A stretch of DNA of 64,000 nucleotides from an uncultured Spirochaetales bacterium (GCA_964384485.1 CAYLLE010000001.1:40589-104588); one strand, 5' to 3'; positions 29,541 to 53,121 are shown, counted from the first letter of the stretch. The notes: generated by a model not told the origin, from the sequence alone. Program-made: numbers and translations.

Positions 29541-29551
29541 TATTTTTCTCC

Positions 29552-30514: not shown

Positions 30515-30546
30515 CTTTCATCCTAATTCTTCAGTAGAATATTGAG

Positions 30547-30571
30547 GATGCGGGGAGGACCCCCGCATCCG
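30547..30571 (-). promoter_or_regulatory. intercistronic stem-loop between SBP and permease genes
   Basis: Perfect 11-bp inverted repeat GGATGCGGGGG / CCCCCGCATCC with a 3-nt loop. It is not followed by a T-tract on the transcribed strand. Confidence 0.3.
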
Positions 30572-30593
30572 TTAAACTCTGTGATACTTGAAA

Positions 30594-32357
30594 CTATTTA
30601 TTTTCCTGCTGATCAATCCATGCCTGAGCAAGGGCTTTCATATCGCCTCCGCCTGTATTGTTCCACTCAACAAGGAATTCATCCCAGGCGCTTATATCTT
30701 CCGCGCCGTAAATGATTTTTTGTACAACTTCGGGAAGCGCGCCTTTTGCGACAAGGTCATAATTCTGCAGAGTCTGCAGCCCTACCGTACCTAGGAAAGC
30801 ATTCGGAATATAAACATCATTTTCAACCATTGCGTCAATGGTATTCCACGGACCTACTCCGTCCATTCCCAGCCAGCGATAATGACCCCACGCGTTGACC
30901 CGTTCATCTACAGGATCACTGTCTTTACCGGGCCATCCCTGGGCGATGTCGTAGTATGTCTGAGCTTCAGTTGACAGTTCAGATTTGGACATTTCCCCGT
31001 TCACAACCTTCATTGTCGGTTTCCATATTTCTTCCATATTCTTGAAAGGTCTGAAAATACCGTCTACGACTGCATGATACGCTGTAGTTTCGCTTTTCTT
31101 TTCGTCAGCGGAAAGATATTTCTCCCGGTTTTCCGGAGTGTTCATGTCGCCGTAATTCATCTCAACCCAGAAATTCAGGAACTTTATAAGTACTTCCGGA
31201 TGCTTTGCAGTTTTACTTACGACATAAAGGTTAGTCGAGGGACTGTTATAGGGAGACTTAGTCGGTTCTGAAGCCTTCAGGGAAGGCGGTGCGACCGGTA
31301 TCCAGTCCACGGGATCTTTACCGTCTTCCAGATTTTTCTGCATAAGCTGATTCAACGGCCACAGGCATTGAAAGTGATATCCGTATACCATACCCACCTT
31401 GCCGGCAATCAGATCCTGCACTACATTATTTCCCTGCATTGTTCCAAAGTCCTGGCGGAAAAGGCCTTCTTCATACATTTCATTGAGCGTGGTAAGAGCA
31501 TCTTTCATGCCCTGGGTTTCTCCGGCCCAGACAGCCTCACCGTCTTTGTTAAAGAAGAAAGGAGCACCGTTGTTCGGACCGCGTACCTGATGAGCACCGA
31601 ACGCGTCAAAGAATCCGCTTAAACCCCAGCCGACTCTAAACATGGCGTGATCTTTTCCGGCAAAGGCTAGACCGTAGGTGTCATCCTTTCCGTTACCGTC
31701 CGGATCATCAAACGTAAATGCCCGGGCAACTTCGATCATCTCATCAATTGTTTCGGGGGGATCCATGTTGACATTTTCAAGCCAATCCCGACGTACCCAA
31801 AGCAGCGCCGTACTCTCAAGATAATCACCGCCTTTGGGAATACCCAAAAGTTTTTCATTCATGGTTGCTGAGGCAAGATTACGTTCGTCAGCTTCCATTA
31901 TCTCTTTTGTAAGATCGGTTGCATAAGCTTCATAAACTTCGGTCAAATCTGCCAGCATATCCGCACGCTGCATCTGAAAAAACTGAATGTACGTGATCGG
32001 CATAATATCGGGAATATCGCCGGAAGCGATGGCGATATTGCGCCTGTTTTGAAACTGGCTCTTGTCAACCCGCCACTCGTACTCCACATCCACACCGAGC
32101 TCGTCCCGGTACAGATTAAACCAGTTGTTGTTTTCTTCATCAAATCCTTCCGAATATGCCGAACCTTCTTCAGGAAGCGCATCAACTGTCGTGACAGTTA
32201 TGGGCGGATCATATTTCCCGAAGGGTTCCGCATCTTCCATACTCTCTGTTTGAGTGCTGCCGGTCTCTTCAGCAGTTCCACTGCTCCATGCCGCAGTAAC
32301 GGTGATAAGATTTAGAGCGAGGATCAGAAGAAACATTTTTAGAATATTTCTTTTCAT
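30594..32357 (-). CDS. extracellular solute-binding protein, family 1 (LplA-like large sugar SBP)
   Basis: Signal peptide MKRNILKMFLLILALNLITVTAAWS. About 588 aa, typical of LplA-type SBPs. The start was trimmed to the ATG at 32357, which is preceded by AAGGAGG. Confidence 0.8.
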   Translation of the reverse strand: MKRNILKMFLLILALNLITVTAAWSSGTAEETGSTQTESMEDAEPFGKYDPPITVTTVDALPEEGSAYSEGFDEENNNWFNLYRDELGVDVEYEWRVDKSQFQNRRNIAIASGDIPDIMPITYIQFFQMQRADMLADLTEVYEAYATDLTKEIMEADERNLASATMNEKLLGIPKGGDYLESTALLWVRRDWLENVNMDPPETIDEMIEVARAFTFDDPDGNGKDDTYGLAFAGKDHAMFRVGWGLSGFFDAFGAHQVRGPNNGAPFFFNKDGEAVWAGETQGMKDALTTLNEMYEEGLFRQDFGTMQGNNVVQDLIAGKVGMVYGYHFQCLWPLNQLMQKNLEDGKDPVDWIPVAPPSLKASEPTKSPYNSPSTNLYVVSKTAKHPEVLIKFLNFWVEMNYGDMNTPENREKYLSADEKKSETTAYHAVVDGIFRPFKNMEEIWKPTMKVVNGEMSKSELSTEAQTYYDIAQGWPGKDSDPVDERVNAWGHYRWLGMDGVGPWNTIDAMVENDVYIPNAFLGTVGLQTLQNYDLVAKGALPEVVQKIIYGAEDISAWDEFLVEWNNTGGGDMKALAQAWIDQQENK

Positions 32358-32447
32358 TGAAATACCTCCTTGGTAGTTTTCTGATGCATTATAAAGGCGC
32401 AAAAAGAACCCCCGCTATGTGCAACTTTTTACCTTTGTTACGATTGT

Positions 32448-34196
32448 TTACCTGTTCTTGAATTTTATACGGAGGGAAACACGCAATCCGCCCATGGCAC
32501 TTCGGGAAAAAAATACCCCGCTGCCTGTTCCGAAAAGCAGGACAATCCGTTTATGTATATTAATTAATCCGGTAGTCTGGTGCTCTTCCTGGGCTGTCAC
32601 ACGGTTTTGCATCAAAGATAATTGGGCGTCCGACAAACCGGAACCGTTGTCTTCAATATCGATTACAAGGGTGATGTCATCGCCGGTGAATGAAATCTTC
32701 AGCCTGCCCCCGCTTACCTTATCCTCAAGACCGTACTGAAACGCATTTTCTATAACCGGCTGGACTATAAGGCGGGGTACGGAAAGATCACAGTATTCAG
32801 GAGGAAGCTCCTCAAAATCCATAGAAATACGGTTAGAAAAACGCATTGCCTGAATCTCCGCGTAGATTCTCGCGTGCTCAATTTCCCGGGATAAAGGCGC
32901 TTCGTCAGAATCACTCCGCGCAATATACTGCAGGTATATGCCAAGGTATTTAGAAAATTGATCAGCATTTTCAACATCACCCTGTTTTATCCACCTTCTA
33001 AGTATAAAAAAACTGTTATATAAGAAATGAGGATTAATTTGTGCCTGAAGCTGCTTCAGCTCCGACTTTTGAACAAGTATCTTTTGGGTATATGACTGGT
33101 CGATCAGAGCTTTCAGATTTCCTACCATGGTGTTAAACCCGTCCATAATGTAGCCGAATTCCCCGGTCGAATCGGAATCCATAGTAACATCGAGTTCCCC
33201 CTTTTCCACCCGGCTGAAAGCCTTAACGAGTCGGGACAATGGTCTGTGAACGACCTGATACGACAGATAGAAAAAAGCCGCCATAACGACGAGGGCTGTT
33301 GCGGCAAATATCCAGAACGTCCGTTTATATCCCTCAGCTTTCTGAAAGACAATCCCTTCAGGAGTGTAAATCAGGTAGTGCAAGTCCAGGACGGAGGAAT
33401 AGGCGGACGAAATCAAATATCCTGTGCCATCAACAACAATCTGATTATTTCCTTCTGCCTCCATTAAATCGGGATTCGCGGAAATATGATTGACTAGTTT
33501 AACATTATTCCCGGAACTGAGAAAAAAATCCCGCTCTCTATTGAATAGCAAAGCTCCCGATTCACCGCCTCCCGAATATACCAGCATCGCTTCCTGCAGC
33601 CGTTCCTCAGAAAATTCTATAGTGCTCAAGATGACTAGAACCTGGTTTTCCGCCCGGACGAACGGGAAGGTATTCACTATGTACAGGCCTCTTTCGGATT
33701 GGTGAATTACCGCCTCCGATTGTTCCGCCGCGGTGCTGATAAAATCATGCTCGTCTTCCGTAAGTGTGCCGTATGACAGTGAACTTATCTTCCTGTCCTT
33801 ATCCGGGAGAATAACTGAAACTTCATCAATATAGCGGCTCGAATTCTTTATTGCATCTAAGCTGCTTTGAACCCTGACTATGTTCATATCCCGGTCATAG
33901 TTCGGTTTGCTGAAGTCCATGGTAGTCAACCGCTGGAGAAAAATATTATCCAGAAGGTTTAACTGAAGCAGCTGAATCCGGGTAATATCATCTTCTAAAG
34001 TCGAAACAAAAAAACCGACCCTGGAAAATGTAGCTGCCTTTAATTCATCCTTAACGGCTTTTACCCCTCCCTCGTAAATTCTTATTCCGATAAAAATCAT
34101 TGGAATAAGAATCAGCAGGAAAACCAGAAAGAGACGAGTAAAAATTGAGCTGCGCTGCGGAATTTTTTTCATATTTTTCATAACGCGGGCTTCCAA
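32448..34196 (-). CDS. Sensor histidine kinase, YesM/LytS-type. It has two TM helices, a Cache-like periplasmic region, HAMP, His_kinase and HATPase_c.
   Basis: H-box (INPHFLYNSF). HATPase motifs (NAFQYGLED, DNGSGL, GLINIHKRI). Confidence 0.85.
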   Translation of the reverse strand: MEARVMKNMKKIPQRSSIFTRLFLVFLLILIPMIFIGIRIYEGGVKAVKDELKAATFSRVGFFVSTLEDDITRIQLLQLNLLDNIFLQRLTTMDFSKPNYDRDMNIVRVQSSLDAIKNSSRYIDEVSVILPDKDRKISSLSYGTLTEDEHDFISTAAEQSEAVIHQSERGLYIVNTFPFVRAENQVLVILSTIEFSEERLQEAMLVYSGGGESGALLFNRERDFFLSSGNNVKLVNHISANPDLMEAEGNNQIVVDGTGYLISSAYSSVLDLHYLIYTPEGIVFQKAEGYKRTFWIFAATALVVMAAFFYLSYQVVHRPLSRLVKAFSRVEKGELDVTMDSDSTGEFGYIMDGFNTMVGNLKALIDQSYTQKILVQKSELKQLQAQINPHFLYNSFFILRRWIKQGDVENADQFSKYLGIYLQYIARSDSDEAPLSREIEHARIYAEIQAMRFSNRISMDFEELPPEYCDLSVPRLIVQPVIENAFQYGLEDKVSGGRLKISFTGDDITLVIDIEDNGSGLSDAQLSLMQNRVTAQEEHQTTGLINIHKRIVLLFGTGSGVFFSRSAMGGLRVSLRIKFKNR

Positions 34197-34216
34197 GTGT
34201 AGAAAATTTGACTTTT

Positions 34217-34774
34217 TCAGTCAAGTATTTCCTTCACCATGTAGATAAGACCGGTACGTCCTCCCCGGGGAAGGGGCTCCCATTCCGGCAGTTTACCCAC
34301 TTCCCGGTATCCTATCTTCCGGTACAGTTCCACAGCCACCGTGTTTTCTTCCCACACGGTCAGTGACAGACGGGTGCTCCCTAGCTTCCGTGCTTCCTCT
34401 TCAAGAAGGTTCATAACTAGCCTGCCAAGTCCTAAACCCCGAGCCTTTCGGGAGAGCATAATTCCGATAGTGATCCACAATCCGGTATAATTTTTTGTCG
34501 CGTTTGCTTCGCCGACCAGTTGATCATCCAGAAAAATAAACAGTCTCCGTTCTTTTTCAGTCTCCAGCTTTTTTAAAATTTGACAGAGATGATCACAGCT
34601 TTTCGGAAGATCCATCTCCTGATGACTGCACATCACCTGTTCTTCATGCAGTTCATTCCGGAATCTCATGAAACTGTACAGGTCTTCCCATACCGGGTAC
34701 CGGATAACCACCAGCCGTTCCCTTATCGCCTTTTCTAAAATGATCTGTCCGGATAACACATTTTCCGATTTCAC
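34217..34774 (-). CDS. GNAT family N-acetyltransferase
   Basis: Acetyl-CoA binding motif (RKARGLGLGRLVMNLLEEEARKLG). Confidence 0.75.
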   Translation of the reverse strand: MKSENVLSGQIILEKAIRERLVVIRYPVWEDLYSFMRFRNELHEEQVMCSHQEMDLPKSCDHLCQILKKLETEKERRLFIFLDDQLVGEANATKNYTGLWITIGIMLSRKARGLGLGRLVMNLLEEEARKLGSTRLSLTVWEENTVAVELYRKIGYREVGKLPEWEPLPRGGRTGLIYMVKEILD

Positions 34775-34951
34775 TTTCGCCCCCTTATTTTTTCAAGTAG
34801 TACTCCAGGTTACCTTCCGCCGTCAAGGAAAATATTTACCGGGGAGACGGTTTGTAAAAGATAGTTACATGGGTAAAGAATAGAACCTTGTGAGCATATA
34901 GGGGAGAAAATAAACTGATTCAATATTTAACCCCGGAGGTTTACGGAATAT

Positions 34952-36484
34952 ATGGCGCAATATATACAGGAAAATCAGAAAGTACTTTTTAATATCCCAT
35001 CGGTAAAATTTAACCAGCCCGTCCTCACCTGGGATGATGACACCGTCAAAGCCCTGGTGACTGCCGCGGTAATGTTAGCTTCAAAAACCGGATTAAACCT
35101 TCCGGATGATGACGAAGGGGTTTACCTGAAAGAGGCTGAATCAAAGGGAGCTAAGATCAGTTTAACGGAAAAAACGGTGTATTTTACGGAAGAACAGCTT
35201 AGGGACACCCTTGATGTTATCCGGAAAACCGCGCCTGTAAGGAAACCGCTCCGGGGTGATTTGAAACCGAAACCCCGGGACAGGAAATACATGGTCGGTA
35301 ATTCGGGCAACCTGCTTTTTGATTCAGAAACCTGGGAAGCCAAAGCTCCGGGGAGTGACGATCTTATCGATTTCTGCAGCTGGATACAGGGAGACAACAA
35401 TCTCCTATCCATGCACGCTCCCATGACCAAAGACACTAACCAGATGGTAGGCCCGATGTATGACTACGCCTTAAGCTGCAAGTACTGCAGAAAAACGGTC
35501 AAACATCAGATGCCGGTGTACGATTTTCATGTCAAGCATCTATACAAGATGGACCGGATCGTTGAAAAGCACCGGGGCTACTTCACGCCGATGTACGCCG
35601 CTGAATACGTCAATCCGCCGTTCAAACTCAGCAAGAGAACAATCGACTGCATGCTGAGCAGATATGAACTGGGCGCCCTCAAGGAGAACGGAATATGGAT
35701 GGGTTCGATGACCATCGGGGGGATGAGCGCTCCCGTGACTGTTGCCGGCGCGGCAGTACAGGCCTTCGCCGAAACACTCGCGGCCCTCGCGTTTTTCCAC
35801 ATCATCCGTCCGGAATCACCCCTCAGGATGGTGATGGCCACCGGCAGCGCCGATTTGCGGACCGGGAACGTGGATTATTTCAGTATGCGGACCCACCTGC
35901 AGAATACCGCGGTTTGGGAAATGATTACCCGGGGTGTCGGTGCCATGGCGCCTTATCTCACGTGGTACCGGGATGTGAATGAGCCTGGCCTGCAGGCCGT
36001 GTATGAGCTGACCATGGGTCTTTATTTCTTCCAATGCACCTCCGGTCAGGGGCACCCCAGTATCGGACAGCTGGATAACGGCAACTCTTTTTCACCCCAG
36101 CAGGCTATTATGGACATTGAAGTCTTAAAAGAATTTGACCAGCTCACCGGCGGTTTCGACGTGAATGATGAAATACTCGGACTGGAAGAGATGATTAAAA
36201 ACGGATTTGAAGGAGATTTCCTTGGATCGGAACACACCGTTCAGTATATGCAGGAAGGAATTCCGTACAGTTCATTCTTTTTCCGCGGTCTTCCCGGAAC
36301 GATGAGACATAACAAAAATAAAACACAAACCCAGGAACTGATGGACAAGGCCTGGGAATCAGTAAAAAAATCCAAACAGGCCGGACGGGAAATTGAACCC
36401 GATCATGAATTGGCCGGTGAACTGTATGAAGTTGTTAAGGAAGCCGCCGGAGAAATCGGCATTGCGGCTCCGGAATTAAAGTAG
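34952..36484 (+). CDS. MttB-superfamily methyltransferase homologue (non-pyrrolysine member; trimethylamine/glycine-betaine:corrinoid methyltransferase-like TIM barrel)
   Basis: About 510 aa. Several blocks align by eye to the MttB/MtgB C-terminal half: SMTIGGMSAPVTVAGAAV, SIGQLDNGNSFSPQQAIMDIEVLKEF, and LGLEEMIKNGFEGDFLGSEHTVQYMQEG...FFRG. There is no in-frame UAG. RBS is CCGGAGGT. Confidence 0.6.
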   Translation: MAQYIQENQKVLFNIPSVKFNQPVLTWDDDTVKALVTAAVMLASKTGLNLPDDDEGVYLKEAESKGAKISLTEKTVYFTEEQLRDTLDVIRKTAPVRKPLRGDLKPKPRDRKYMVGNSGNLLFDSETWEAKAPGSDDLIDFCSWIQGDNNLLSMHAPMTKDTNQMVGPMYDYALSCKYCRKTVKHQMPVYDFHVKHLYKMDRIVEKHRGYFTPMYAAEYVNPPFKLSKRTIDCMLSRYELGALKENGIWMGSMTIGGMSAPVTVAGAAVQAFAETLAALAFFHIIRPESPLRMVMATGSADLRTGNVDYFSMRTHLQNTAVWEMITRGVGAMAPYLTWYRDVNEPGLQAVYELTMGLYFFQCTSGQGHPSIGQLDNGNSFSPQQAIMDIEVLKEFDQLTGGFDVNDEILGLEEMIKNGFEGDFLGSEHTVQYMQEGIPYSSFFFRGLPGTMRHNKNKTQTQELMDKAWESVKKSKQAGREIEPDHELAGELYEVVKEAAGEIGIAAPELK

Positions 36485-36494
36485 AGGCATCAAA

Positions 36495-38510
36495 ATGAAA
36501 GAACAGCTTAAGAAAATAATGCGGTACGCCGCTCCGTATCATTATCCCGACGCTCTGAGCCAGCTCGACCGGCTCATCGGTATGGGTGCGGGTATTATAC
36601 ATGTAAACTTTCATCAGTCGGCCATGGAACTTTTTGAGTGGCGGGGCTTACATACTCATCATCCTCCCCACCCATTCAATCTGCATGATAAAGGTCCGGC
36701 CATGGACAATATGATGAGGGATTTCACCTCCATCTGCAAAGAGAATGGGATCATTCCCATGGTCTATATCTGTTTCCACACCTTCGCGATCCGTCTTTTG
36801 AATGATCATCCGGAAGCATGGGACTGGCTGGCAACGGATGAAATGGGAACTCCCCTGCTTCAGGCTCTCTACGTAAGGAACAGACAGCGCCGATACCAGG
36901 GATGCCCGAACAATCCGGGATGGATAGACCATCTTAAAGCAATGAGCTCACAGGCCGTAAACCTTGGGTTTAAAGGGATATTTTTTGACAACCCGAACTG
37001 GGTTTGGTGCTACTGCCCCCATTGTCAGGAAGCATTCGGCACATACCTCAAGGGTAAGGGGTTTGATCCCGAGCCTGTCCCGAAGACTCCTGACTGGAAG
37101 TCTGAAACATGGCAGCAGTATATGCGGTTTTTGGGCTCGGTTATCAAAGAAAAGATGACGGAGCTTAACCGGTTTCTTAAGCAGCAGGATCCGGAATTCA
37201 TTATTACCATGAATTCGCTGCCGCCTACGGAACGTTCACCGTCGGTACAGGCCGTCCTAAGCTATTACGTGAATGAAGCGGCGGATTATACCTTCTACGA
37301 AATCGGAGCCGGCAGACCTTCCGGTCAGCTTGGAAACGGGAAATACTGGAAAGGAATTGATTACCGGAGTTACGGGGTTGCTGAAGGAGAACTCTACGGA
37401 AAACTGCTTACCATTCTGGTGCACCGGAAATACCGGGATCCCGAGGAGGATACCCGTCCGAAGACAGTACCCTCAGTTCCCTATGGAAACTACGACAAGT
37501 TTGATCTCAACAGAAGCAGGCTGGGATTAGCGGAAGGATGGGCGTTCCGTTCTTCCGAAGTTCTTGAAGATATCCATTCCATACGGAATTTCGAACGGCC
37601 TATGGAACTGCGTTCTTATTATGATTTTGCTCAGGAGCACGCTGACCTGTATATTGATTCAAAGATGAAAGCTTCTGTGGGCGTCTACTTTTCCATGGAA
37701 AATCTGATGCGGAATCTAGCGGTAGAACATACCAATGATGATCCGGATCTGGCATTCTTCCTTGGAAAAAAAGAGGGGAAATGGCCCCATCCCGGTTATC
37801 TTAAATGGATCAATATCCTGGCGGACTCCCATCTTCCCTTTAAAACGATTCTTGATCTTGAAACATGCGATGTCGACGTACTAATAATCCCGGACACAAA
37901 GCATATCACTCCCGAAGAATCGGCGGCGTTGGAAAAGAAGATAAAAGAAGGCCTAAAGATATTGGCTACCGGAGAAACATCGCTGTACGAGGGCAGTAAA
38001 CGTCTCGGCGGATACCAGCTTTCCCGGGTGTACGGGACCGAAGAACCGGTCAATACACGGATCCGAAACGATTACGGAAAAGGGGCAGCGGTACTCCTTC
38101 CGGATGCTCCGGAAATGAAGTATTATATTCCCCAAACGGAAGATAAAGATGGTGTGACCGACGCTGGCCAGAACAGCTGTATCCGGGAAGTTTTGATTTC
38201 CGAGCTTCGGTCACTTTACGGAAAGAAACAGTTCCCCGTGGAAGGGCGTATGCCTCAGTCCCTGCTGCTGACAGCACTTGAGTACCGGGGTAAAACTTGC
38301 ATCAATATGGTAAACTACGGGGTATCTATCCGGAATGACCAGGTAATCCCGGCGGGAGAAGCATCCATCCTTTTGGATACCCAGCCGGAAAAAGCAGAAA
38401 TTTACTCACCGGACCGGAAGAAACCCGAAATAGAATTGATAAAAACCGGAGTTACGGCAGAGATCAGGGTATCCCGGACCGGGATTTATAATTTAATCGT
38501 TTTGTCATGA
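36495..38510 (+). CDS. GH42-like glycoside hydrolase homologue (TIM barrel with Cys4 metal site plus beta-gal trimerisation-like domain)
   Basis: C-x38-CxCxxC (QGCPNN...WVWCYCPHCQ) resembles the Zn site of Thermus GH42 beta-galactosidase. The middle domain DVLIIPDTKHITPEESAALEKKIKEGLKILATGE is flavodoxin-like. No DxHxxG B12 motif is present. Confidence 0.5.
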   Translation: MKEQLKKIMRYAAPYHYPDALSQLDRLIGMGAGIIHVNFHQSAMELFEWRGLHTHHPPHPFNLHDKGPAMDNMMRDFTSICKENGIIPMVYICFHTFAIRLLNDHPEAWDWLATDEMGTPLLQALYVRNRQRRYQGCPNNPGWIDHLKAMSSQAVNLGFKGIFFDNPNWVWCYCPHCQEAFGTYLKGKGFDPEPVPKTPDWKSETWQQYMRFLGSVIKEKMTELNRFLKQQDPEFIITMNSLPPTERSPSVQAVLSYYVNEAADYTFYEIGAGRPSGQLGNGKYWKGIDYRSYGVAEGELYGKLLTILVHRKYRDPEEDTRPKTVPSVPYGNYDKFDLNRSRLGLAEGWAFRSSEVLEDIHSIRNFERPMELRSYYDFAQEHADLYIDSKMKASVGVYFSMENLMRNLAVEHTNDDPDLAFFLGKKEGKWPHPGYLKWINILADSHLPFKTILDLETCDVDVLIIPDTKHITPEESAALEKKIKEGLKILATGETSLYEGSKRLGGYQLSRVYGTEEPVNTRIRNDYGKGAAVLLPDAPEMKYYIPQTEDKDGVTDAGQNSCIREVLISELRSLYGKKQFPVEGRMPQSLLLTALEYRGKTCINMVNYGVSIRNDQVIPAGEASILLDTQPEKAEIYSPDRKKPEIELIKTGVTAEIRVSRTGIYNLIVLS

Positions 38511-41500
38511 GCACAGAAAGCACCAGATGGTCGGAAGATAAGGCTCCCCGTAGTTTAAGTGATCTTAAATCCCGGTTTACCGAATCACCGGGAAGATACC
38601 GGCCGGTTCCCTGGCTCGGATACTCGGGCAGTCTTACCGAAGAAGAAGTACTCGCGTCGATAGAAGAGATGCACCGGCAGTCTATATACTCTTTTTTCAT
38701 CTTCCCCGTATACGGAATGGAGATTGAGTACCTTTCCCCGGAATGGTTCTCCCTTGTAAGAAAATCGGTCCGACGGGCAGCTTCCCTGGGGATGGAAGTC
38801 TGGATTTACGACGATTACAACTGGCCCAGCGGAACCTGCGGCGGCAAATTGATTTTAGAGCATCCGGAGTACAGCATCCGCCGGATAGAAGCTTTTATAT
38901 CAGATTATATCCCTCCAGGTGAAGAACTCAGGTTCCCCGGACAGGACCCATTCATTAAAACGGTCGCGGTTACAGAATCAGGCCGGTCGCTGCCTGCCAC
39001 TCTGTCCAAAGATGAAGAAAGCGGTTATTCCTGGAAGAATGACACAGCAGAACCGGCCAGGATAACACACCTGTATATACAGGAGCCGGCCCCGCTCAAA
39101 TACAATCTCTGTCTTTTTAAAGGCAGCCTCTGGCAGAAAGAATATGATTTGGGTACCCATTACTTAGAGTTCCTAAATCCCGACGCGGTTGAAGAATTCA
39201 TCACCATGACCTACCGGCGGTACCGCAGTGAGCTGAAGGATTTGTGGAGCTCAATTGCGGGTTTTATGACCGACGAACCGAGCCTTCGCGAATCAATCCA
39301 TTATTATCCCCCGTTCTTAAAAACATTTGAAAAGACCTACGGATACAACCTGGAAGACCGGCTTGAACACCTCTTTCTCCCCGGTTCGGAAAATGCATTC
39401 CAGGTCCGGGCCGATTACTGGAGACTTGCCGGAAAAATATTTGCTGAAAATCTGGGTCGTATAAACCGGTGGTGCCGGAAGCACGGGGTAGATTTTACCG
39501 GTCATTTCCTGGGAGAAGAGAGTCCGGGGGCCGAAGTCTGGCATCAGGGGTCAGCGGCTGTCCGGAAGGAAATGTCGATCCCCGGCATGGACGTTCTCTA
39601 CGATACTCCGTGTGATCCCACCCCGTCCAACACCTATTCAACATTCGTCCATCATTACGACAACCTGGCCCTTACCGGAAAACTTGTCTCCGCGGCCTCG
39701 GAAACAGCCGGGAGCCGGAGAGCTTTTGCCGAAGCATTCGGCGGCTTTCCCTACTGGGGCGGTCCGGCCGATTTGACCGCCCAAACCCATTGGACTACGG
39801 CGCAGGGAATAAATTTTATAAACGACAATTCCCTTTCCGTTTCCTGGAAAAGTTTCCGGAAGCGCACACTCTGGGGGAAGCATTTTACAATGCCCTGGTG
39901 GGAATGCTACAGCAATTTCGTAAAAACAGCAGGCCGGTGCTGCCTGCTCGAATCAGTGGGAAGACCGATTAGACCTATCGGCCTGGTGTATCCTGAGCTG
40001 ACCGCTCAAGCCCTTACCTTCCGTAACTGGCACCGCGGCAGCTCCGGTGTTACCGGAACCCTTCTGCAGTCGAATAAGCTTGTTCAGGAGACTGCTTCAG
40101 CATTGTCTCTCAACCATCGGGACTGGGGTATCCTGTGGGAAAACGGTTTATCCGAATCTTCCGGTGACCGTGAAAACTGCAGGATCCTGATCATCCCGGG
40201 GGCTTACTGCCTCTCCCGGAAAATACTTGAAGACCTCATGGTTCAGCAGCGGAAGGGCATCTGTTTAATCTTTGTCGGTTCAGCACCGGAATATTTTATC
40301 GACGGAGATAATGACCTGTGCCGGGACATCCTCGACAGGCTCATGCAGTGCCCGAACGTGTACCGGATAAATCCCCGGGAAGCTGACCGGTATATCATAG
40401 AACGCGCGATAGAGCCGATTATTGATGGTCAACTTGACCGAAGCTTCTCCATTTCCGGCCCGGGGAAACATCTTATTACAGCGTCCGCAAGGATGTGGGA
40501 AGATACCGGGATTATCCATCTTGTGAATATGAGCCCGCGGACAACCCGCGTCTCCTGTTTCGTTACCACGAAAGATCCTGTGTCTTTGTGGCATCCCGAT
40601 GACGGTAAAACATATTCGGTCTCCGGAGTAGATCTTGAGCAGGGACAGAAGTTTTCACTCGAATTCGCCCCCTGGGAGGGATACTTTCTCGTCTCGAGTC
40701 GGGAAGCCGTGGTGACGGACCACCCGTTGCCGCCCCGGGACGCGGCGCAGGGACTGGAAGGATTCACCCTGCGGCACACGGCTTTTCCGGAACCGCTTCC
40801 GGATTTTTTATCCTTGGACAATAAATGGGACATCACCCCCGAATCAGTGAACACCCTGGCGCCGGATATGTACTTCCATGAAATGACAGCGGAATCCGGA
40901 CCGCCGTCCGAATCCGCCGGATGGCTTCGCGCAGATGACGAGAAACTCCCCTTTCCGTTAAACCCTTCCGAGTCCGAATACTACTGGCACCGGTGTGATT
41001 TTTTTGCCGAATATCTCCCGGACGACATAGCTGCCGTGGTAGACAGTGATCTCTATGAAGCCGCTTTTATCAACGGAAATCCGCTGCCTGACCCATCTCC
41101 CGTCACACTGTGGGACCGGGGAAATCTTTCCTTCAGACTCGGCGGGTACATAAAACCGGGAGACAACAGCCTGACATTCAAAGTAAAGACTGACCCTCAC
41201 TATGATCCGAAGGTAGTTCTCAAGTCTTTTGAACCGTTCCGTCTTGAACCCGTTATCGTCTCCGGATCCTTCGGTGTAGCAATTAAAGATAAGGGTAAAG
41301 TGATCGGACCTAAACCCGACCGGCTGTTCACCGGCGACTGGGGTCTGCAGGGCTTTTATAATTATTCCGGAGTGATAGTATACCGGCATACTTTTACCGC
41401 TCTGCCCCAGGGCAGCCAGGTGTGGCTTGACCTGGGATCGGTTGGTGTATGCGCTCATCTTAAAGTAAACGGCCGGGAAGCAGGAAGACGCTGCTGGCCG

Positions 41501-41674
41501 CCGTATATGTTCCGGATCGATCCCTACCTGGAAGAAGGAAAAAACACCTTGCTTATACGGGTAATGAACACCTTCGGGAACCTTTTCGAGAAAGGTGTTT
41601 GGGGATTCGACCATAAAACGGGTATGGCTCCGTCGGGTATTCTCGGACCGGTTAAGCTGATCGGCCTTCCCTGA
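38507..41674 (+). CDS. Large multidomain glycoside hydrolase (1055 aa). Its N-terminus is alpha-L-rhamnosidase-like (GH106-type). It has two C-terminal galactose-binding-like beta-sandwich domains.
   Basis: N-terminal motif RYRPVPWLGYSG..EEEVLASIEEMHRQSIYSFFIF. The C-terminal domains resemble the GH2 N-terminal sugar-binding domain (YRHTFTALPQGSQVWLDLGSVGVCAHLKVNGREAG). ATGA overlap with the upstream gene. The family assignment is tentative. Confidence 0.5.
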   Translation: MSTESTRWSEDKAPRSLSDLKSRFTESPGRYRPVPWLGYSGSLTEEEVLASIEEMHRQSIYSFFIFPVYGMEIEYLSPEWFSLVRKSVRRAASLGMEVWIYDDYNWPSGTCGGKLILEHPEYSIRRIEAFISDYIPPGEELRFPGQDPFIKTVAVTESGRSLPATLSKDEESGYSWKNDTAEPARITHLYIQEPAPLKYNLCLFKGSLWQKEYDLGTHYLEFLNPDAVEEFITMTYRRYRSELKDLWSSIAGFMTDEPSLRESIHYYPPFLKTFEKTYGYNLEDRLEHLFLPGSENAFQVRADYWRLAGKIFAENLGRINRWCRKHGVDFTGHFLGEESPGAEVWHQGSAAVRKEMSIPGMDVLYDTPCDPTPSNTYSTFVHHYDNLALTGKLVSAASETAGSRRAFAEAFGGFPYWGGPADLTAQTHWTTAQGINFINDNSLSVSWKSFRKRTLWGKHFTMPWWECYSNFVKTAGRCCLLESVGRPIRPIGLVYPELTAQALTFRNWHRGSSGVTGTLLQSNKLVQETASALSLNHRDWGILWENGLSESSGDRENCRILIIPGAYCLSRKILEDLMVQQRKGICLIFVGSAPEYFIDGDNDLCRDILDRLMQCPNVYRINPREADRYIIERAIEPIIDGQLDRSFSISGPGKHLITASARMWEDTGIIHLVNMSPRTTRVSCFVTTKDPVSLWHPDDGKTYSVSGVDLEQGQKFSLEFAPWEGYFLVSSREAVVTDHPLPPRDAAQGLEGFTLRHTAFPEPLPDFLSLDNKWDITPESVNTLAPDMYFHEMTAESGPPSESAGWLRADDEKLPFPLNPSESEYYWHRCDFFAEYLPDDIAAVVDSDLYEAAFINGNPLPDPSPVTLWDRGNLSFRLGGYIKPGDNSLTFKVKTDPHYDPKVVLKSFEPFRLEPVIVSGSFGVAIKDKGKVIGPKPDRLFTGDWGLQGFYNYSGVIVYRHTFTALPQGSQVWLDLGSVGVCAHLKVNGREAGRRCWPPYMFRIDPYLEEGKNTLLIRVMNTFGNLFEKGVWGFDHKTGMAPSGILGPVKLIGLP

Positions 41675-42668
41675 ACGTTTCAATCATGGCGATAACGTTT
41701 TCCGGCGGAACATCCTGCGGTACCGAGTGGGTGGGTCCGCCGATGTATCCTCCGCCGGCGCCGAGAATGTTCATCGTCTCTCTGGTCACCTGACGCACTT
41801 CATCAACCGACGCGTAGGGCAGGAACTGCTGGGTACTGATTCCTCCCCAAAATGTAAGTTTACTTCCATACCGGTTTTTCACTTGTTCAAGATCGTAAAT
41901 CTCAGGCTGCAGGGTTTGATACACATCCAGTCCAATCTCAATCAGATCGTCAAATATTTCCGATACATCGCCGCAGGAATGCTGAAAAACATATAACCCT
42001 TTACTCCGTACTCTTCCGTAGAGGTCAGCCATCCGGGGCTTGATGAATTTTCTCCAGTGTTTAGGACCCATTAGCAAGCCGCGCTGCTGTCCCCAATCAT
42101 CACCAAACATAAAACCGTCCAAATCGTATTGAAGGGCCACATCCAGTATTTTATGATTAAAGGCAAGAATTCCATCCAAAAGTTCCTCGACGAAACCGGG
42201 ATTCAGTATCATATCGGCAAGGAGATTTTCCATTCCCCGAAGCGTCCATGCCCGTTCAAACATTGAGAATCCGATATTTCCTAATTTAAAAACATCTTCA
42301 TCTAATTCAATCAATTCACCGAACCTTTTATGGAGATTATCCGTTTCAAGCCGGGGGAATGAATAGCCGTTCATTTCAGGTGCAGGAAGCTGTATGTTGT
42401 CAACGATGCCGGTATCCTTATCCGCGCCGCTCTTGTTCCAGACCACTCCGAAGGCATCACGAAAAAATCCGGGCTTATCGGGAAGTTCTGTTATCCCGCC
42501 TTTAAAATAAGCGCTCTTGATATGATTACCAATTTTCGCATCAAAATCAGGATCCTTCAGGTAGTCCGCGATCCTCGCGCGCTCGTGGATGGTAAATCCT
42601 ACTGAATACGGAACTCTGTCGGGCTCTTCGTGTTCAATGGCAGCAATTATACGTTCCCTTCTTGTCAT
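41652..42668 (-). CDS. uroporphyrinogen decarboxylase (URO-D) family protein (MtaA/CmuA-like methyltransferase fold)
   Basis: The N-terminus (MTRRERIIAAIEHEEPDRVPYSVGF) and C-terminus (GGISTQQFLPYASVDEVRQVTRETMNILGAGGGYI) are typical of URO-D/MtaA. It is the last gene of a minus-strand operon. Confidence 0.7.
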   Translation of the reverse strand: MTRRERIIAAIEHEEPDRVPYSVGFTIHERARIADYLKDPDFDAKIGNHIKSAYFKGGITELPDKPGFFRDAFGVVWNKSGADKDTGIVDNIQLPAPEMNGYSFPRLETDNLHKRFGELIELDEDVFKLGNIGFSMFERAWTLRGMENLLADMILNPGFVEELLDGILAFNHKILDVALQYDLDGFMFGDDWGQQRGLLMGPKHWRKFIKPRMADLYGRVRSKGLYVFQHSCGDVSEIFDDLIEIGLDVYQTLQPEIYDLEQVKNRYGSKLTFWGGISTQQFLPYASVDEVRQVTRETMNILGAGGGYIGGPTHSVPQDVPPENVIAMIETFREGRSA

Positions 42669-42685
42669 AAAAAACTCCTTATAAG

Positions 42686-43774
42686 TCAGAACTGGTTTAA
42701 GAATTCACCGGCGATTTCCGCTTTTTGCACAAATGATGCCGTGAGAGCCCATTCTTCATCAGAATGAAACCGGCCGCCTACCGGACCTAAACCGTCCAAC
42801 ACCGGAACCAGATCGGCTACATAACTGCTGTCGGACGCTCCGCCCCGGGAAATCGGGAATACCCGCACCCCTTTTCGTTCAGCGCATTTGCCGTATTTCC
42901 GGAACAGGGCCTCTGTTCCGGAATTCGGAGAAAAAGCAGGAAAAGCGGGTCCCGGCGTTAATACGAACTTGCATCGGGTGCCGGAGCCGTTTACCAATTC
43001 CTCCGCCTTCCTTACCGCGGATTCGAGCACATCAAGCTCAAAGGCCCGGATCTCAAACTCGGCTTCGGCATAATCCGGAACCTGGTTGTAGGCCGAACCT
43101 CCCCGGACTATTCCGACATTAACCGTGCATTCCCTGCCGTAATCGGTCATGGATTCAAGCTTCTCTACCATACCGCACAACCCCCGGACGGCACTGACCC
43201 CCGAGGCGTGATCATTTCCCGCGTGCGCTGCTTTTCCGCAGGATTCCAGCTTGAATCTTCTAAGACCCTTCCGGGCTGTAACAGCGTATAAACCCTCATC
43301 CGCTGGCGGAACAGGTTCGAAATTGAGACAGTATTCCGCCTTAAGGTTACGTCGAATGTAATTGCGGAATGCCTGAGTGGGGATTTCTTCCCGGCCGTTC
43401 ACCACAATCCGGAGGTTTCTTTTCTTCGTTCTGTCGAGAGTTTGCAGGAGTACGGTCAGACCGCCCTTCATATCCGCGACTCCGGCTCCATAGATCCTGT
43501 CAGGCTGACTGCCGATTCGGAACGGGACTTCCTGCGGACCAAGGACGGTGTCGGCATGACCCAGCAGAAGTACCTGACCGTCGGAAGATCCCCGGACCGC
43601 GTCCAGAACGGGAAATGAAACATCTCCCTCTTTGAGTTCTTGAATCCTCACGGTGAAGTCCCGTTCCTCTAAACAGGGTGTAAGTAATGCCATCACATCG
43701 CGTATACCTTCTTTACGAGAGCTTCTGCTGTCTATCCTGCAGAGGTCGGAGAGCATGGAAAGAAAATCATCCAT
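42686..43774 (-). CDS. M20 family metallopeptidase / N-acyl-amino-acid deacylase-like (ArgE/DapE/CPG2 fold)
   Basis: Metal-binding motifs (LLGHADTV, GAGVADMKGG). Confidence 0.8.
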   Translation of the reverse strand: MDDFLSMLSDLCRIDSRSSRKEGIRDVMALLTPCLEERDFTVRIQELKEGDVSFPVLDAVRGSSDGQVLLLGHADTVLGPQEVPFRIGSQPDRIYGAGVADMKGGLTVLLQTLDRTKKRNLRIVVNGREEIPTQAFRNYIRRNLKAEYCLNFEPVPPADEGLYAVTARKGLRRFKLESCGKAAHAGNDHASGVSAVRGLCGMVEKLESMTDYGRECTVNVGIVRGGSAYNQVPDYAEAEFEIRAFELDVLESAVRKAEELVNGSGTRCKFVLTPGPAFPAFSPNSGTEALFRKYGKCAERKGVRVFPISRGGASDSSYVADLVPVLDGLGPVGGRFHSDEEWALTASFVQKAEIAGEFLNQF

Positions 43775-45063
43775 TAGAGTGTTTTTTCAACCTCCCTGAT
43801 CTGCCTGGCCAGCTCCTCGGTTATACGAGCTGCTTCATCTTCCCGGAGGAGTAACGGCGGCTGGATCCTGAGGACATTGCCGAACGGACCGCCTGCTCCA
43901 ATTAAAATACCCCGTTCCCGGCATCCCGCGCGGATCTGCTTTGCGAACTCAGGTGCCGGCGTTTTGGCCGAATCTTTTACCAGTTCGATACCGATCATGA
44001 GCCCTCTGCCCCTTACTTCACCGGTCACGACCGTTTCCTCTTCCAGCGGCTTCAGCGAGTTCATTATCTGCGAGCCCCTTTCCAGAGCATTTCCAGAGAG
44101 ATCATTCCGGGTAATAAATTCTATGTTACTGAGAGCGGCCGCGCAGCTCACCGGATTACCGCCGAACGTCGAAAGATGGCTCCCCGGAGTAAAAGCCTCA
44201 GCTATTTCCGGGCGTACGGTAAACGCGGATAGGGGAAATCCGTTCGCGATTCCTTTTGCCGTCGTCATTATATCAGGAACAATGCCGCTATATTGAATTC
44301 CGAACATTTTTCCGGTCCTGCCGAATCCGGTTTGAACTTCATCACATATAAACAGAATATCATGCTCTTCCAAAATTTCTTTTACGTATTCGAAAAATCC
44401 GTCCGGCGGGACAATAATGCCCCCCTCTCCCAAAATCGGTTCCGTTATCATGGCGGCAACATCACCGGCCGTTTGAAAACGTATCACATTCCGAAGATAT
44501 TCCGCGGACTGTTCCGCGCAGGCTCCGGGAGACTCGGTACCGAAGGGACAGCGGTACGTGTAGGGCGCGGGGGTAAAGGCAATACCGGAAGCGTAAGGAC
44601 CTCCGTCTGTTTTCCTGCTGCTGTTTCCGGTAATAGACAAAGTCATGTTGGTCCTGCCGTGGAAACTGTGGGTCAACGCGATAAACTCGTGCCTGCCGGT
44701 ATACTGTCTCGCGATCCGCAAAGCGCCTTCGATTGCTTCGGCGCCGCTGTTTCCGAAAAATGATTTCCGGAGTGTGCCGGGAGTAATTTGGGAAAGCTTC
44801 TCTGCCAGGTTAGCTGCAGGGGAGTTGTAGTACACATAGGTGCAGCAGTGAACCCACCGTTCCATCTGTTCTATGGCGGCATCAAGTATTTCCCGATTTC
44901 CATGCCCGGCATTTGTAACAGCGATGCCGCTGAAACAATCCAAATATTCTTTTCCGCTCCTGTCGGTCACGGTACAATCCTTCGCCGACATAAACTCCAC
45001 ATCTTCGAATCCAGAAACCATAGAGGTGATCATGTATTCCTGATAAAGATCCTTCGTATTCAT
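43774..45063 (-). CDS. class III PLP-dependent aminotransferase (omega-aminotransferase family)
   Basis: FICDEVQTGFGRTGKMFG and TTAKGIANGFPLSA (Lys) motifs. The start was trimmed to the ATG at 45063, which is preceded by GGAG. Confidence 0.85.
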   Translation of the reverse strand: MNTKDLYQEYMITSMVSGFEDVEFMSAKDCTVTDRSGKEYLDCFSGIAVTNAGHGNREILDAAIEQMERWVHCCTYVYYNSPAANLAEKLSQITPGTLRKSFFGNSGAEAIEGALRIARQYTGRHEFIALTHSFHGRTNMTLSITGNSSRKTDGGPYASGIAFTPAPYTYRCPFGTESPGACAEQSAEYLRNVIRFQTAGDVAAMITEPILGEGGIIVPPDGFFEYVKEILEEHDILFICDEVQTGFGRTGKMFGIQYSGIVPDIMTTAKGIANGFPLSAFTVRPEIAEAFTPGSHLSTFGGNPVSCAAALSNIEFITRNDLSGNALERGSQIMNSLKPLEEETVVTGEVRGRGLMIGIELVKDSAKTPAPEFAKQIRAGCRERGILIGAGGPFGNVLRIQPPLLLREDEAARITEELARQIREVEKTL

Positions 45064-45073
45064 TTTCACTCCG

Positions 45074-46102
45074 TTACGAAAGGTAAACAGGGTTTCCCGT
45101 TTCCACCGACTCGTTAATTCCGCAGATAATCCTTGTAACTTCAAGACCGTCCCTGGCCCCGGTCATGGGCACCTGATCGGAAACAATACAGTCGACAAAA
45201 TGACGGATACTCTCCACCGCGAACCCCATTGGTTTTCCGTAGATGTTCGGTCTAACCAGAACATCCGGATACTTTGAATCTTCGGCGGTGTATTTCTGCA
45301 TGGCTCTGTGATGGCTTCCATCCAGATAAATCACTCCCTCTGTTCCGACAACTTCGCACTTAAAGTCTATCAGACTTGGCGATGATTTAGGAAGGATCCA
45401 GCAGTTTTCCACCATCCCGACTCCGCCGTCTTGAAATTCCAAAATCATCTCGTAAAAATCGGGAGTCGTTATACCCATGCCCGTAAGTACTTTCGACCTG
45501 GCCACCCCGTACACCTTTTTAACCTTATCAGCAAACAGCCACCGGACCAAGTCTACCGAATGACTTCCGATGAACCAGGCCACGGAGGACCGGCCGGCCC
45601 ACTTAAGCCACTCTGTGGGGACGGTGATTTCATCATTCAGCCGTAAATAAATATATGAGGGGCTCCCGAGCTGCCCCTTCAAAATCGATTCTTTTGTCTT
45701 GTAAAAAATCGGATTCCACCGGTTGTGGAAATCAACCATAAACTTAACCCCTGCCGCTTCCGCGGCGTCCGCGATCTTCTCGCATTCTTCCACAGTGGTT
45801 GCCAGGGGTTTCTCTATAAGTACATCTTTGCCCGCTTCTATCGCGGCCAGTGCAATTTCGGTATGGCTGAAATCGGGAGTTACTATCGAAACAGCACTGA
45901 CGGAATCGTCCTGCAGAAGCTCCCGGTAATCGGAGTATCCGCTGTTCACGCCGTATTTTGACATGGCCTGATTCAGCCTTTCTCCATCGGTGTCGCATAA
46001 CGCTGCCAGATTAACCCGTTCATCGTAGTCATACGTCTGGGCGTGCATATCACCCCAGCCGCCTACCCCGATAATTCCAATTCCTATTTCCCGGTTTTTC
46101 AT
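45074..46102 (-). CDS. Gfo/Idh/MocA family NAD(P)-dependent oxidoreductase
   Basis: N-terminal Rossmann motif (IGIGIIGVGGWGDMHAQTY) and C-terminal GFO_IDH_MocA_C region. Confidence 0.85.
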   Translation of the reverse strand: MKNREIGIGIIGVGGWGDMHAQTYDYDERVNLAALCDTDGERLNQAMSKYGVNSGYSDYRELLQDDSVSAVSIVTPDFSHTEIALAAIEAGKDVLIEKPLATTVEECEKIADAAEAAGVKFMVDFHNRWNPIFYKTKESILKGQLGSPSYIYLRLNDEITVPTEWLKWAGRSSVAWFIGSHSVDLVRWLFADKVKKVYGVARSKVLTGMGITTPDFYEMILEFQDGGVGMVENCWILPKSSPSLIDFKCEVVGTEGVIYLDGSHHRAMQKYTAEDSKYPDVLVRPNIYGKPMGFAVESIRHFVDCIVSDQVPMTGARDGLEVTRIICGINESVETGNPVYLS

Positions 46103-46114
46103 CTTTTGCTCCTC

Positions 46115-46894
46115 TTAAATACCTTTGTAACCGCCGGCGACAACAATTTCTTCCCCGGTAATGGCGTCGGAGGCCGGAGAAAGAAGAAAAAGCGCGGCAC
46201 CAACCACATCATCCACCGTCAGAATCCGTTTTTGCGGAGTTTGCTCGATTATGTTCTGCCGTAATTCTTCTATTGTCAGACCGCCGCTTTCGGCGATCAT
46301 GGGCCAATGGGATTCGGCGATTGAAGTTTCCGTGGGACCGGGACACAGGGAGTTCACGCAGATTCCCTTGTCGGCAACCTCTTTTGCCAAAGACTGGGTA
46401 AAGCCGATAACCCCGAACTTGGAGGCACAATATGGACTTATCCTGGCTACTCCTGCCTTTCCGGCGGTGGAAGCGACATTCAGGATTTTCCCGCTCCTGT
46501 TTTTAATCATCTCCGGAAGCACCGCTTTACACATAAGGAATACCCCGGTTAAGTTCACCGAAAGAGTTTTGTTCCATTCTTCAAGAGAGGTTGTTTGAAC
46601 GGGATCAGCCGGCCCGCCGATTCCGGCATTGTTGACTAATACATCAATTCCGCCGAACGCGGAAATGGCTTCATTTACCGCCCCCGCCGCGTCTTCTTCC
46701 CGGGAGACATCCCCTGTATAGATAAACCCTTTACCGCCGGCGTCGTTTATGCGTTTGACCGTGTCTTTCAGCTGATCCGCCGAACGGGACATCACCGCGA
46801 CCGCTGCTCCCCGCTCAGCCAGTGCCACGGCCAATCCGCGTCCAATTCCCCGGCCGCCTCCGGTTATCAATACCCGCATATCCTTAAAGTCCAT
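46115..46894 (-). CDS. SDR family short-chain dehydrogenase/reductase
   Basis: TGGGRGIGRGLAVALAERGAAV cofactor motif, YCASKFGVIGFT catalytic YxxxK, and NNAG. Confidence 0.9.
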   Translation of the reverse strand: MDFKDMRVLITGGGRGIGRGLAVALAERGAAVAVMSRSADQLKDTVKRINDAGGKGFIYTGDVSREEDAAGAVNEAISAFGGIDVLVNNAGIGGPADPVQTTSLEEWNKTLSVNLTGVFLMCKAVLPEMIKNRSGKILNVASTAGKAGVARISPYCASKFGVIGFTQSLAKEVADKGICVNSLCPGPTETSIAESHWPMIAESGGLTIEELRQNIIEQTPQKRILTVDDVVGAALFLLSPASDAITGEEIVVAGGYKGI

Positions 46895-50930: not shown

Positions 50931-50938
50931 GGAGAACC

Positions 50939-53120: not shown

Positions 53121-53121
53121 C

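Follow-up and report, generated by a model that had tools for sequence, protein, structure and literature searches.

The stretch of DNA analysed here, 64,000 nucleotides from an uncultured Spirochaetales bacterium (GCA_964384485.1 CAYLLE010000001.1:40589-104588) and hereafter called the window, encodes a homologue of the trimethylamine methyltransferase MttB that forms an operon with two glycoside hydrolase (GH)-like genes. The protein belongs to a rare, distinct clade of the MttB superfamily. In the loci examined, its members usually have a sugar aminotransferase as a neighbour and in no case a B12 carrier, and for these reasons the substrates of the clade probably form a class that is previously undescribed for the MttB family. 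All open reading frames (ORFs) that an initial annotation, made from the sequence alone, had listed for this locus were recovered with identical coordinates. The MttB-like gene is the first gene of the operon, as had been proposed: 10 nt separate its TAG stop from the next ATG (36495), and the second and third genes, encoding large GH-like proteins of 671 and 1055 amino acids (aa), are coupled by an ATGA overlap at 38507-38510, so that the three genes form one transcription and translation unit. The 3' end of the 1055-aa gene overlaps that of a convergent URO-D-family gene by 23 nt (41652-41674), which leaves no space for an intergenic terminator. A scan of positions 34000-43000 for sigma-70 promoters and terminators returned counts at chance level and was uninformative. 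Overall, about 30 kb around the MttB-like gene constitute a carbohydrate-utilisation region, which includes an ABC sugar transporter, and a PFOR gene in the window suggests that the host is an anaerobe.

The assignment of the first gene product to the non-pyrrolysine MttB homologues was upheld by a Pfam scan, in which PF06253 (MTTB) scored 90.6 bits against a gathering cutoff of 25. The ORF contains no internal stop, and the protein is therefore made without pyrrolysine. TIGR02369 aligns end to end with the product (residues 29-498), with a score of 94 bits against an equivalog cutoff of 525 bits, so the protein is not an MttB in the strict sense. Taking both models together, it is a genuine but very divergent member of the superfamily. 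An AlphaFold2 model, built with 19 sequences of the clade described below as input (mean pLDDT 83), shows the full-length TIM-barrel fold of the solved MttB and MtgB structures. Its best matches in the PDB, found with Foldseek, are MttB (7xcl, 7xcm, 7xcn), MtgB (2qne, 9yce) and 4yyc, with E values of ~1e-20, TM scores of 0.62-0.70 (0.64-0.70 for the MttB and MtgB entries) and identities of 17-18%. MtmB is a more distant match. An identical copy of the protein is annotated in an NCBI Spirochaetia bacterium metagenome-assembled genome (MAG), and its Pfam/NCBI label is 'trimethylamine methyltransferase family protein'.

Sequence searches delimited a group of close relatives. A word-indexed search retrieved ~20 proteins at 44-52% identity and then none above ~32%, and when 1.84 billion cluster representatives were searched exhaustively with a profile, ~10 full-length matches exceeded 300 bits before the scores dropped to ~208. 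A hidden Markov model (HMM) of the clade likewise scores at least 290 bits for the clade loci and at most 232 bits for all other MttB homologues that were fetched. Judged by these scores, the clade is small, deep-branching and sharply set apart from other MttB homologues, and all of its members carry PF06253. When GTDB species genomes and JGI metagenomes were also scanned with the clade profile, the set grew to 34 non-redundant loci, with hosts among the Planctomycetota (including Brocadiaceae), the Lentisphaerota (Lentisphaeria, Victivallales), the Armatimonadota, the Spirochaetia MAG and a human-gut Ruminococcaceae MAG.

Two of the loci hold more than one copy. Locus L004:950-8571 (ERZ24794654 NODE_3599) carries five tandem clade paralogues in a single operon, flanked by a HemL-like aminotransferase and BNR_2/Laminin_G_3 proteins, and locus L089 carries two (2-1342 and 4694-6109), one of them divergent; such multiplicity suggests substrate diversification or sequential action. 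An intermediate MttB group from Anaerolineae, Lentisphaeria and Planctomycetota MAGs (L021-L026) scores ~143-216 bits on the clade HMM. It has neither corrinoid neighbours nor sugar aminotransferases, and may be a second orphan clade.

The genomic context of the clade was quantified by searching HMMs made from annotated neighbours against six-frame ORFs of the 25 clade loci whose flanks reach 3 kb or more, over distances of up to 10 kb (gene calls in the fetched loci are partly simple ORF calls), and 40 non-clade MttB loci with comparable flanks served as the control set. A HemL-like class-III aminotransferase was found in 11 of the 25 clade loci, directly adjacent in eight, and a DegT/DnrJ/EryC1 aminotransferase in six, directly adjacent in two. 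One or the other occurred in 16/25 loci and lay directly beside the MttB-like gene in ten, compared with 0/40 control loci (Fisher p = 3e-9). Among solved structures, the HemL-like neighbours are closest to glutamate-semialdehyde aminomutases and then to aminoglycoside C-6' aminotransferases (7lld, 7lm0, 9aue), and the DegT neighbours to perosamine synthetase, QdtB and scyllo-inositol transaminases. Based on these counts and relatives, the conserved functional partner of the clade is a sugar aminotransferase. LacI/GntR sugar-type regulators were present in seven loci (directly upstream in four), BNR_2 sialidase-like proteins in eight, AP_endonuc_2 proteins in six, GFO/IDH/MocA proteins in five, and a zinc-dependent alcohol dehydrogenase (Zn-ADH) in two, directly adjacent in both. 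Further neighbours recognised by Pfam, with sialate-type esterases and de-N-acylases among them, comprise SASA and GDSL esterases, PIG-L, GNAT, DHDPS (NanA-like) and Laminin_G_3 proteins, together with GH123, GH20, GH4, GH42, GH78, GH51, DUF6259 and DUF4838. No corrinoid protein was encoded in any of the 25 loci within the same distance.

What these loci have in common is the breakdown of amino sugars or of sugars decorated with amines, possibly ones that resemble sialic acid. The initial annotation had allowed that the glycan context could be incidental, an option contradicted by the recurrence of the clade in carbohydrate-catabolic loci of at least five phyla. It had also considered a coupling of an MttB-family enzyme to glycan breakdown to be undescribed. 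In the collection of full texts that was searched, no relevant paper turned up on MttB or PF06253 together with glycoside hydrolases, sialidases, methylated sugars, polysaccharide utilisation or amino-sugar loci, and none that links the family to glycans. The window copy is the only well-flanked member of the clade that is followed by GH-like genes and does not lie near a HemL-like or DegT aminotransferase.

The genes surrounding the operon are compiled in Table 1. The class-III aminotransferase of the convergent operon shares ~24% identity (blastp) with the HemL-like aminotransferases found beside other members of the clade. Its ORF, read from a TTG start, overlaps that of the GFO/IDH/MocA oxidoreductase by 71 nt, and its real start probably lies further downstream. 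The oxidoreductase has homologues in three clade loci (L008, L010, L092). For the M20-family protein, NCBIfam hydrolase/deacylase models match below cutoff, as do rhamnose/xylose isomerase models for the xylose-isomerase-like protein. Further along the same strand, in a stretch of additional glycan-catabolic genes, a GH2 protein with an exo-beta-D-glucosaminidase Ig-fold domain (55026-58202, minus strand) and an Amidohydro_2 protein (52275-53120, minus strand) both fit the processing of an amino-sugar glycan.

Table 1. Genes of the MttB-like operon and of the units surrounding it (positions counted from the first nucleotide of the window)
Feature	Position	Strand	Basis and remarks
Two ABC permeases	29552-30514, 28650-29540	-	Pfam; divergent upstream unit (28650-34774)
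Solute-binding protein	30594-32402	-	Pfam; divergent upstream unit
Sensor histidine kinase	32448-34196	-	Pfam; divergent upstream unit
GNAT acetyltransferase	34217-34774	-	Pfam; divergent upstream unit, nearest the MttB-like gene
MttB-superfamily TIM-barrel protein, 510 aa, non-pyrrolysine	34952-36484	+	PF06253, TIGR02369, Foldseek
Near-orphan protein, 671 aa, distantly GH42-like	36495-38510	+	hhalign to GH42; no Pfam/NCBIfam match
Distantly GH106-like (alpha-L-rhamnosidase-like) protein, 1055 aa, C-terminal jelly-roll	38507-41674	+	Sub-threshold models, PDB matches
URO-D-family protein, 338 aa	41652-42668	-	PF01208; last gene of the convergent operon
M20-family metallo-deacylase (ArgE/DapE-like), candidate de-N-acylase	42686-43774	-	PF01546, PF07687
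Class-III pyridoxal phosphate (PLP) aminotransferase, GABA/acetylornithine-aminotransferase type	43774-45144	-	PF00202, 376 bits
GFO/IDH/MocA sugar oxidoreductase	45074-46102	-	PF01408, PF22725, PF02894
Short-chain dehydrogenase/reductase (SDR)	46115-46894	-	PF00106, 210.7 bits
Xylose-isomerase-like TIM barrel (sugar isomerase/epimerase)	46917-47918	-	PF01261, 85 bits
Response regulator with AraC-type helix-turn-helix domain (YesN-like)	47989-49647	-	PF00072, PF12833
GH28, GFO/IDH/MocA, Amidohydro_2, GH5-like, GH2	49704-58202	-	Pfam; same strand as the convergent operon

The two other genes of the operon had been described as GH42-like and GH106-like, and the suffix is fair for both, while membership in either family falls below the usual thresholds. 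In the 671-aa protein, hhalign detects a GH42 protein from locus L003 over residues 73-240 (probability 62%, E 7.7e-5), and phmmer finds the GH42 structure 1kwg only at E 0.43. The protein keeps the GH42-type Cys cluster (C137 ... C172-Y-C174-P-H-C177), but the aligned acid/base position 'DNE' of GH42 reads 'DNP', which lacks the catalytic Glu of the N-E motif. PF02449 does not match the protein. Its AlphaFold2 model rests on a three-sequence alignment, has a mean pLDDT of 44 and was not used for a fold search. Two homologues were found among 5.8 billion proteins, and an MttB gene is absent from both fetched contexts; the Armatimonadetes homologue (L104:10001-12004) lies among GH109-like, DUF4838 and DUF6259 genes. 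In the 1055-aa protein, the N-terminal GH106 model PF17132 scores 17.7 bits against 29, PF02837 scores 19.3 bits, also below cutoff, NF049897 scores 56.9 bits against 1300, and NF045579, the model of the jelly-roll, reaches 46.8 of the 50 bits required. The GH106 entries of the PDB (6q2f, 5mqm) match its C-terminal domain only, and neither PF17132 nor NF049897 places it in GH106. On this sequence evidence both proteins may be called GH-like and are at most candidate hydrolases. Searches with tblastn and blastp found no homologues of the two proteins in the clade loci, and these particular GH42-like and GH106-like partners are thus not conserved with the clade, a recurrence that the initial annotation had suggested looking for. 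The gene pair 53122-55029/55026-58202 was considered as a paralogous copy of the 671-aa/1055-aa pair and was rejected, being GH5-like and GH2.

The last gene of the convergent operon had been described as encoding a URO-D-family protein, with the fold of MtaA, and was considered here as a possible MtaA-type partner of the MttB-like protein. The family assignment holds (PF01208, 84.7 bits against a cutoff of 23.9); a specific partnership is not supported. MtaA/CmuA models score 45-50 bits on this protein against cutoffs of 235-400 (TIGR01463, 47.1 bits against 235.4; NF040654, 45.6 against 400). Its family is large and independent of the clade, with more than 7000 matches, and its Clostridia members (L068-L072) adjoin ABC permeases and genes for GH123, GH4 or GH5, with no corrinoid protein beside them. 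Within 10 kb of the clade genes, a URO-D-family gene was found in 3/25 loci (the window, L017 and L079/L073), never adjacent and from different subfamilies; we therefore rejected a dedicated second methyltransferase (MT2) of this family as a conserved feature of the clade. The copy in L073 is divergent, reading HSE instead of HSC and hence lacking the Cys. The link between the two genes is weak, and the URO-D-family gene is better regarded as encoding a separate, interesting protein than as one half of a two-component methyl-transfer system.

Among 122 homologues of the window URO-D-like protein, the motifs H230-S-C232-G-D, D190-D191-W192 and T313-H314 are conserved in at least 95%. The C-terminal region of these proteins holds no conserved Cys and instead the conserved T313-H314. 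The Zn site of MtaA consists of a His-x-Cys motif and a distal Cys. The site of the URO-D-like protein looks like an MtaA-like metal site in which a His may stand in place of the distal Cys.

Considering the family, the context and the substrates of characterised relatives, we propose that the clade consists of MttB-type methyltransferases that act on an N-methylated amino sugar, or on a methylammonium-bearing glycan component, and that transfer the methyl group to a shared corrinoid acceptor encoded elsewhere in the genome. We assign this proposal a probability of about 0.4. That methyl transfer takes place, that the substrate is an N-methyl amino sugar and that the corrinoid partner is unlinked are all inferred from context and homology. 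In the proposed sequence of events, the glycosidases, sialidase-like enzymes, esterases and de-N-acylases of the locus would release a sugar bearing an N-methylated amino group, possibly including sialic-acid-like sugars. The MttB-like barrel would hold the methylammonium group in its central cavity and hand the methyl over to Co(I) in a corrinoid protein that also serves other methyltransferases. The primary amine thus freed would be removed by the neighbouring PLP sugar aminotransferase to give a keto or aldehyde sugar, which Zn-ADH, GFO/IDH/MocA and SDR dehydrogenases and xylose-isomerase-like enzymes could then route into central metabolism. The characterised substrates of the MttB superfamily, namely trimethylamine (TMA), glycine betaine, proline betaine, carnitine, gamma-butyrobetaine and phosphocholine, are all N-methyl compounds (PMC13080624, PMC12478193, PMC8604678). 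The MtgB of Ruegeria pomeroyi uses MtgC and MtgD, whose locus tags, SPO2160 and SPO1863, are distant, and several MttB paralogues of Eubacterium limosum share one MtgC (PMC12478193). Owing to these precedents, the lack of a linked corrinoid gene does not imply corrinoid-independent chemistry.

Several observations speak against N-demethylation through an unlinked corrinoid acceptor. Known members of the superfamily demethylate quaternary or tertiary amines, and secondary N-methyl amines normally need pyrrolysine-type activation. To our knowledge, N-methylated amino sugars are not common glycan components. A canonical corrinoid protein (DxHDIGKN) was detected in 7/40 control loci compared with 0/25 clade loci (p = 0.04), and no corrinoid gene was found in L004 despite its five tandem paralogues. 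A cognate PF02310/PF02607 protein encoded alongside, a linkage that is common but not obligatory for corrinoid-dependent first methyltransferases, is missing. Searches with the regular expression DxHxxG...SxL...GG and then with a corrinoid-protein HMM recovered the control proteins in distant MttB loci and found none in the clade loci or the window. The HMM likewise gave zero matches to the six-frame ORFs of the 64-kb window, and neither a RamA-type activase nor a pterin-binding MT2 was seen in the 25 clade loci or the window. This agrees with the initial annotation, which had noted neither corrinoid nor MtrH-like proteins nearby, and with Pfam scans of all 47 called window genes, none of which has a B12-binding, MtrH or pterin-binding domain. 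In the window copy, moreover, no aminotransferase is adjacent (the closest one belongs to the convergent operon, at a distance of 7 kb), and three positions that are near-invariant in the clade are changed (A342V, E370S, G373Q).

The residues of the substrate pocket point in the same direction, with the correspondences taken from HMM alignments to solved structures at about 18% identity. The column of the pyrrolysine of MttB (Pyl334) is occupied in the clade by an invariant Tyr339 within the motif (W)YR(D/E)ANEPG. Both Tyr364 of MttB, which acts as a proton shuttle (PMC9842639), and His348 of MtgB align with Pro369. Of the substrate-binding residues of MtgB, Y97, R312, H348 and F356 (PMC13080624), Arg312, a carboxylate anchor that is also conserved in MtcB, MtpB, MthB and MtyB (PMC13080624), aligns with Pro334, and Phe356 with Gly377, while Y97 falls outside the aligned region; the MtgB-type set is therefore not reproduced. 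With the counterparts of Pyl334, Y364, R312, H348 and F356 all replaced, no known substrate-binding solution is present in the clade.

On the other hand, the core of the barrel is retained. The clade shares 22 fixed columns with a set of nine corrinoid-linked MttB homologues, including D137, K181, E274, N318, S381, Q384 and D388. As we read the HMM alignment, the invariant M253 in the loop G-x-M-x-x-x-G-M-S-A-P-V-T is the counterpart of Met249 of MttB, a residue that shifts upon docking of MttC (PMC9842639). The region of the C-terminal 'dimerisation loop', which docks MttC in MttB (PMC9842639), is present as well, with conserved F419, G421, H428, T429 and G446. Signature motifs of the protein and its clade are VGNxGN..FD, GxMxxGGMSAPVT, WYRDxNEPG and GN.FSPxQA, and the polar motif specific to the clade is (W)YR(D/E)ANEPG plus E.GGL..GN.FSPxQA. 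Changed pocket residues on a kept core would fit a new substrate on a preserved catalytic platform, a pattern that is compatible with our proposal rather than proof of it. The window copy, with its three substitutions, may be a specificity variant.

The same observations could also be read as the loss of methyl transfer, which is the main competing explanation. The MttB fold would then have been retained for a reaction of an amino or keto sugar that needs no corrinoid (an isomerisation, epimerisation, dehydration or deamination, for instance) and takes place beside transamination. This we consider rather unlikely. Corrinoid genes are missing even beside five tandem paralogues, the known pocket residues have all given way to the polar motifs (W)YR(D/E)ANEPG and E.GGL..GN.FSPxQA, the tight operonic pairing with an aminotransferase is what successive steps of a single sugar pathway typically show, and an identity of 17-18% to the solved structures places the clade very far from characterised members. 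Against it stand the absence of an evident cofactor or metal site and the retention of the superfamily core (the Met253 loop, D137, K181, E274, N318, D388) as in corrinoid-linked homologues, and we know of no superfamily member that is not a methyltransferase. Unlinked corrinoid partners, moreover, have a precedent (PMC12478193). It is unlikely that the clade represents the first corrinoid-independent enzyme on the MttB fold, catalysing an undescribed step in the breakdown of amino sugars or nonulosonic acid-type sugars in glycan degraders of the Planctomycetota-Verrucomicrobiota-Chlamydiota (PVC) group, the Armatimonadota and the Spirochaetota; such a step could directly remove or rearrange an (N-methyl)amino group together with the adjacent PLP aminotransferase.

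A different substrate was put forward in the initial annotation, in which the MttB-like protein was an O-demethylase, corrinoid-dependent or corrinoid-independent, of methylated sugars released by the adjacent GHs (2-O-methyl-fucose or xylose and 4-O-methyl-glucuronate would be examples). In the version weighed here, the URO-D-family protein would serve as an MtaA-like second methyltransferase. The window would suit this idea, given the co-operonic GH42-like and GH106-like genes, a pectin-type GH28 gene nearby, a GH78 rhamnosidase in clade locus L077, and URO-D-family genes no more than 10 kb distant (window, L017, L079/L073), the window protein keeping an MtaA-like H-x-C motif. We also know of no anaerobic route for sugar O-demethylation. 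However, the family is known only for N-methyl chemistry, with O-demethylases belonging to other families, and the conserved partner is an aminotransferase that handles amines and not a particular GH, which makes an O-methyl sugar less likely and points to an N-methyl amino sugar or amine instead. The GH-like partners of the window have no homologues in clade loci, and the URO-D-family gene is near 3/25 loci without ever being adjacent, lacks the Cys in L073, and scores 47 bits against the 235-bit MtaA/CmuA cutoff, with a conserved His probably standing in for the third Cys ligand. We hold this explanation to be quite improbable. Very improbable indeed is an accidental placement, in which sugar genes would by chance surround an ordinary quaternary-amine methyltransferase for osmolytes (betaine, choline or carnitine, for example). 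It would agree with the label 'trimethylamine methyltransferase family protein' and with the fact that many non-pyrrolysine MttB homologues are osmolyte demethylases (PMC13080624), but it is contradicted by the conserved context: the carbohydrate and aminotransferase setting recurs across the 25 loci in at least five phyla and is missing from the 40 other MttB loci, and LacI/GntR sugar-type regulators lie directly upstream in four loci and within 5 kb in seven. Furthermore, the neighbours recorded include no transporter for betaine or choline, and the carboxylate-binding R312 and H348 of MtgB are not kept.

The MttB superfamily has so far been tied to one-carbon (C1) and osmolyte metabolism, and serves as a metagenomic marker for methylotrophy and TMA lowering. 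If N-demethylation of an amino sugar holds true, the substrate range of the family would extend to carbohydrate-derived amines; alternatively, the clade could show that the fold is capable of other chemistry, and the corrinoid-independent explanation, if true, would mean a new enzyme activity on an old fold. PF06253 matches in the PVC group, Armatimonadota and Spirochaetota should thus be read with caution, as they may not always signify quaternary-amine methylotrophy. The clade would point to an uncharacterised catabolism of sugars that bear amines in polysaccharide degraders about which little is known, one of them a human-gut Ruminococcaceae MAG, and the pair of MttB-like protein and sugar aminotransferase is compact and amenable to cloning and assay.

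Comparison with known systems places the clade among these enzymes without equating it with any of them. The URO-D-family protein of the window shares the PF01208 fold and a conserved H-x-C-G with MtaA/CmuA, and differs from them in its low scores on their models, in a conserved His that probably takes the place of the Cys serving as third Zn ligand, and in a family that adjoins GH123, GH4 and GH5 genes instead of corrinoid proteins. MttB of Methanosarcina barkeri (7XCL/7XCN) is the best PDB match of the MttB-like protein in both sequence (57 bits) and structure (Foldseek E 4e-20). The clade shares with it the gating Met249, as M253, and the dimerisation-loop region, while it has Tyr for Pyl334, Pro for Tyr364 and no adjacent MttC, and its hosts are bacterial heterotrophs, not methanogens. 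With MtgB of Desulfitobacterium hafniense (2QNE/9YCE) and with MtpB, MtcB, MtyB and MthB, it has in common PF06253, the TIM barrel with a C-terminal extension, the lack of pyrrolysine, and the core. In comparison with MtgB, the clade is 17-18% identical, R312, H348 and F356 are replaced, MtgC, MtgA and RamA are not encoded nearby, and the context is glycan or amino-sugar catabolism with sugar aminotransferases instead of osmolyte transport or C1 metabolism. MtgBCD of Ruegeria pomeroyi, an MttB-family enzyme whose partners are encoded elsewhere, provides the precedent for an 'orphan' (PMC12478193); its MtgC (corrinoid) and MtgD (pterin) are shared with methionine synthesis (PMC12478193). The substrate of the Ruegeria system is glycine betaine and its partners are known, whereas the clade is known by its carbohydrate context. 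Membership of the clade in the MttB superfamily is thus secure, and its substrate class, partners and ecology appear to set it apart from every characterised member.

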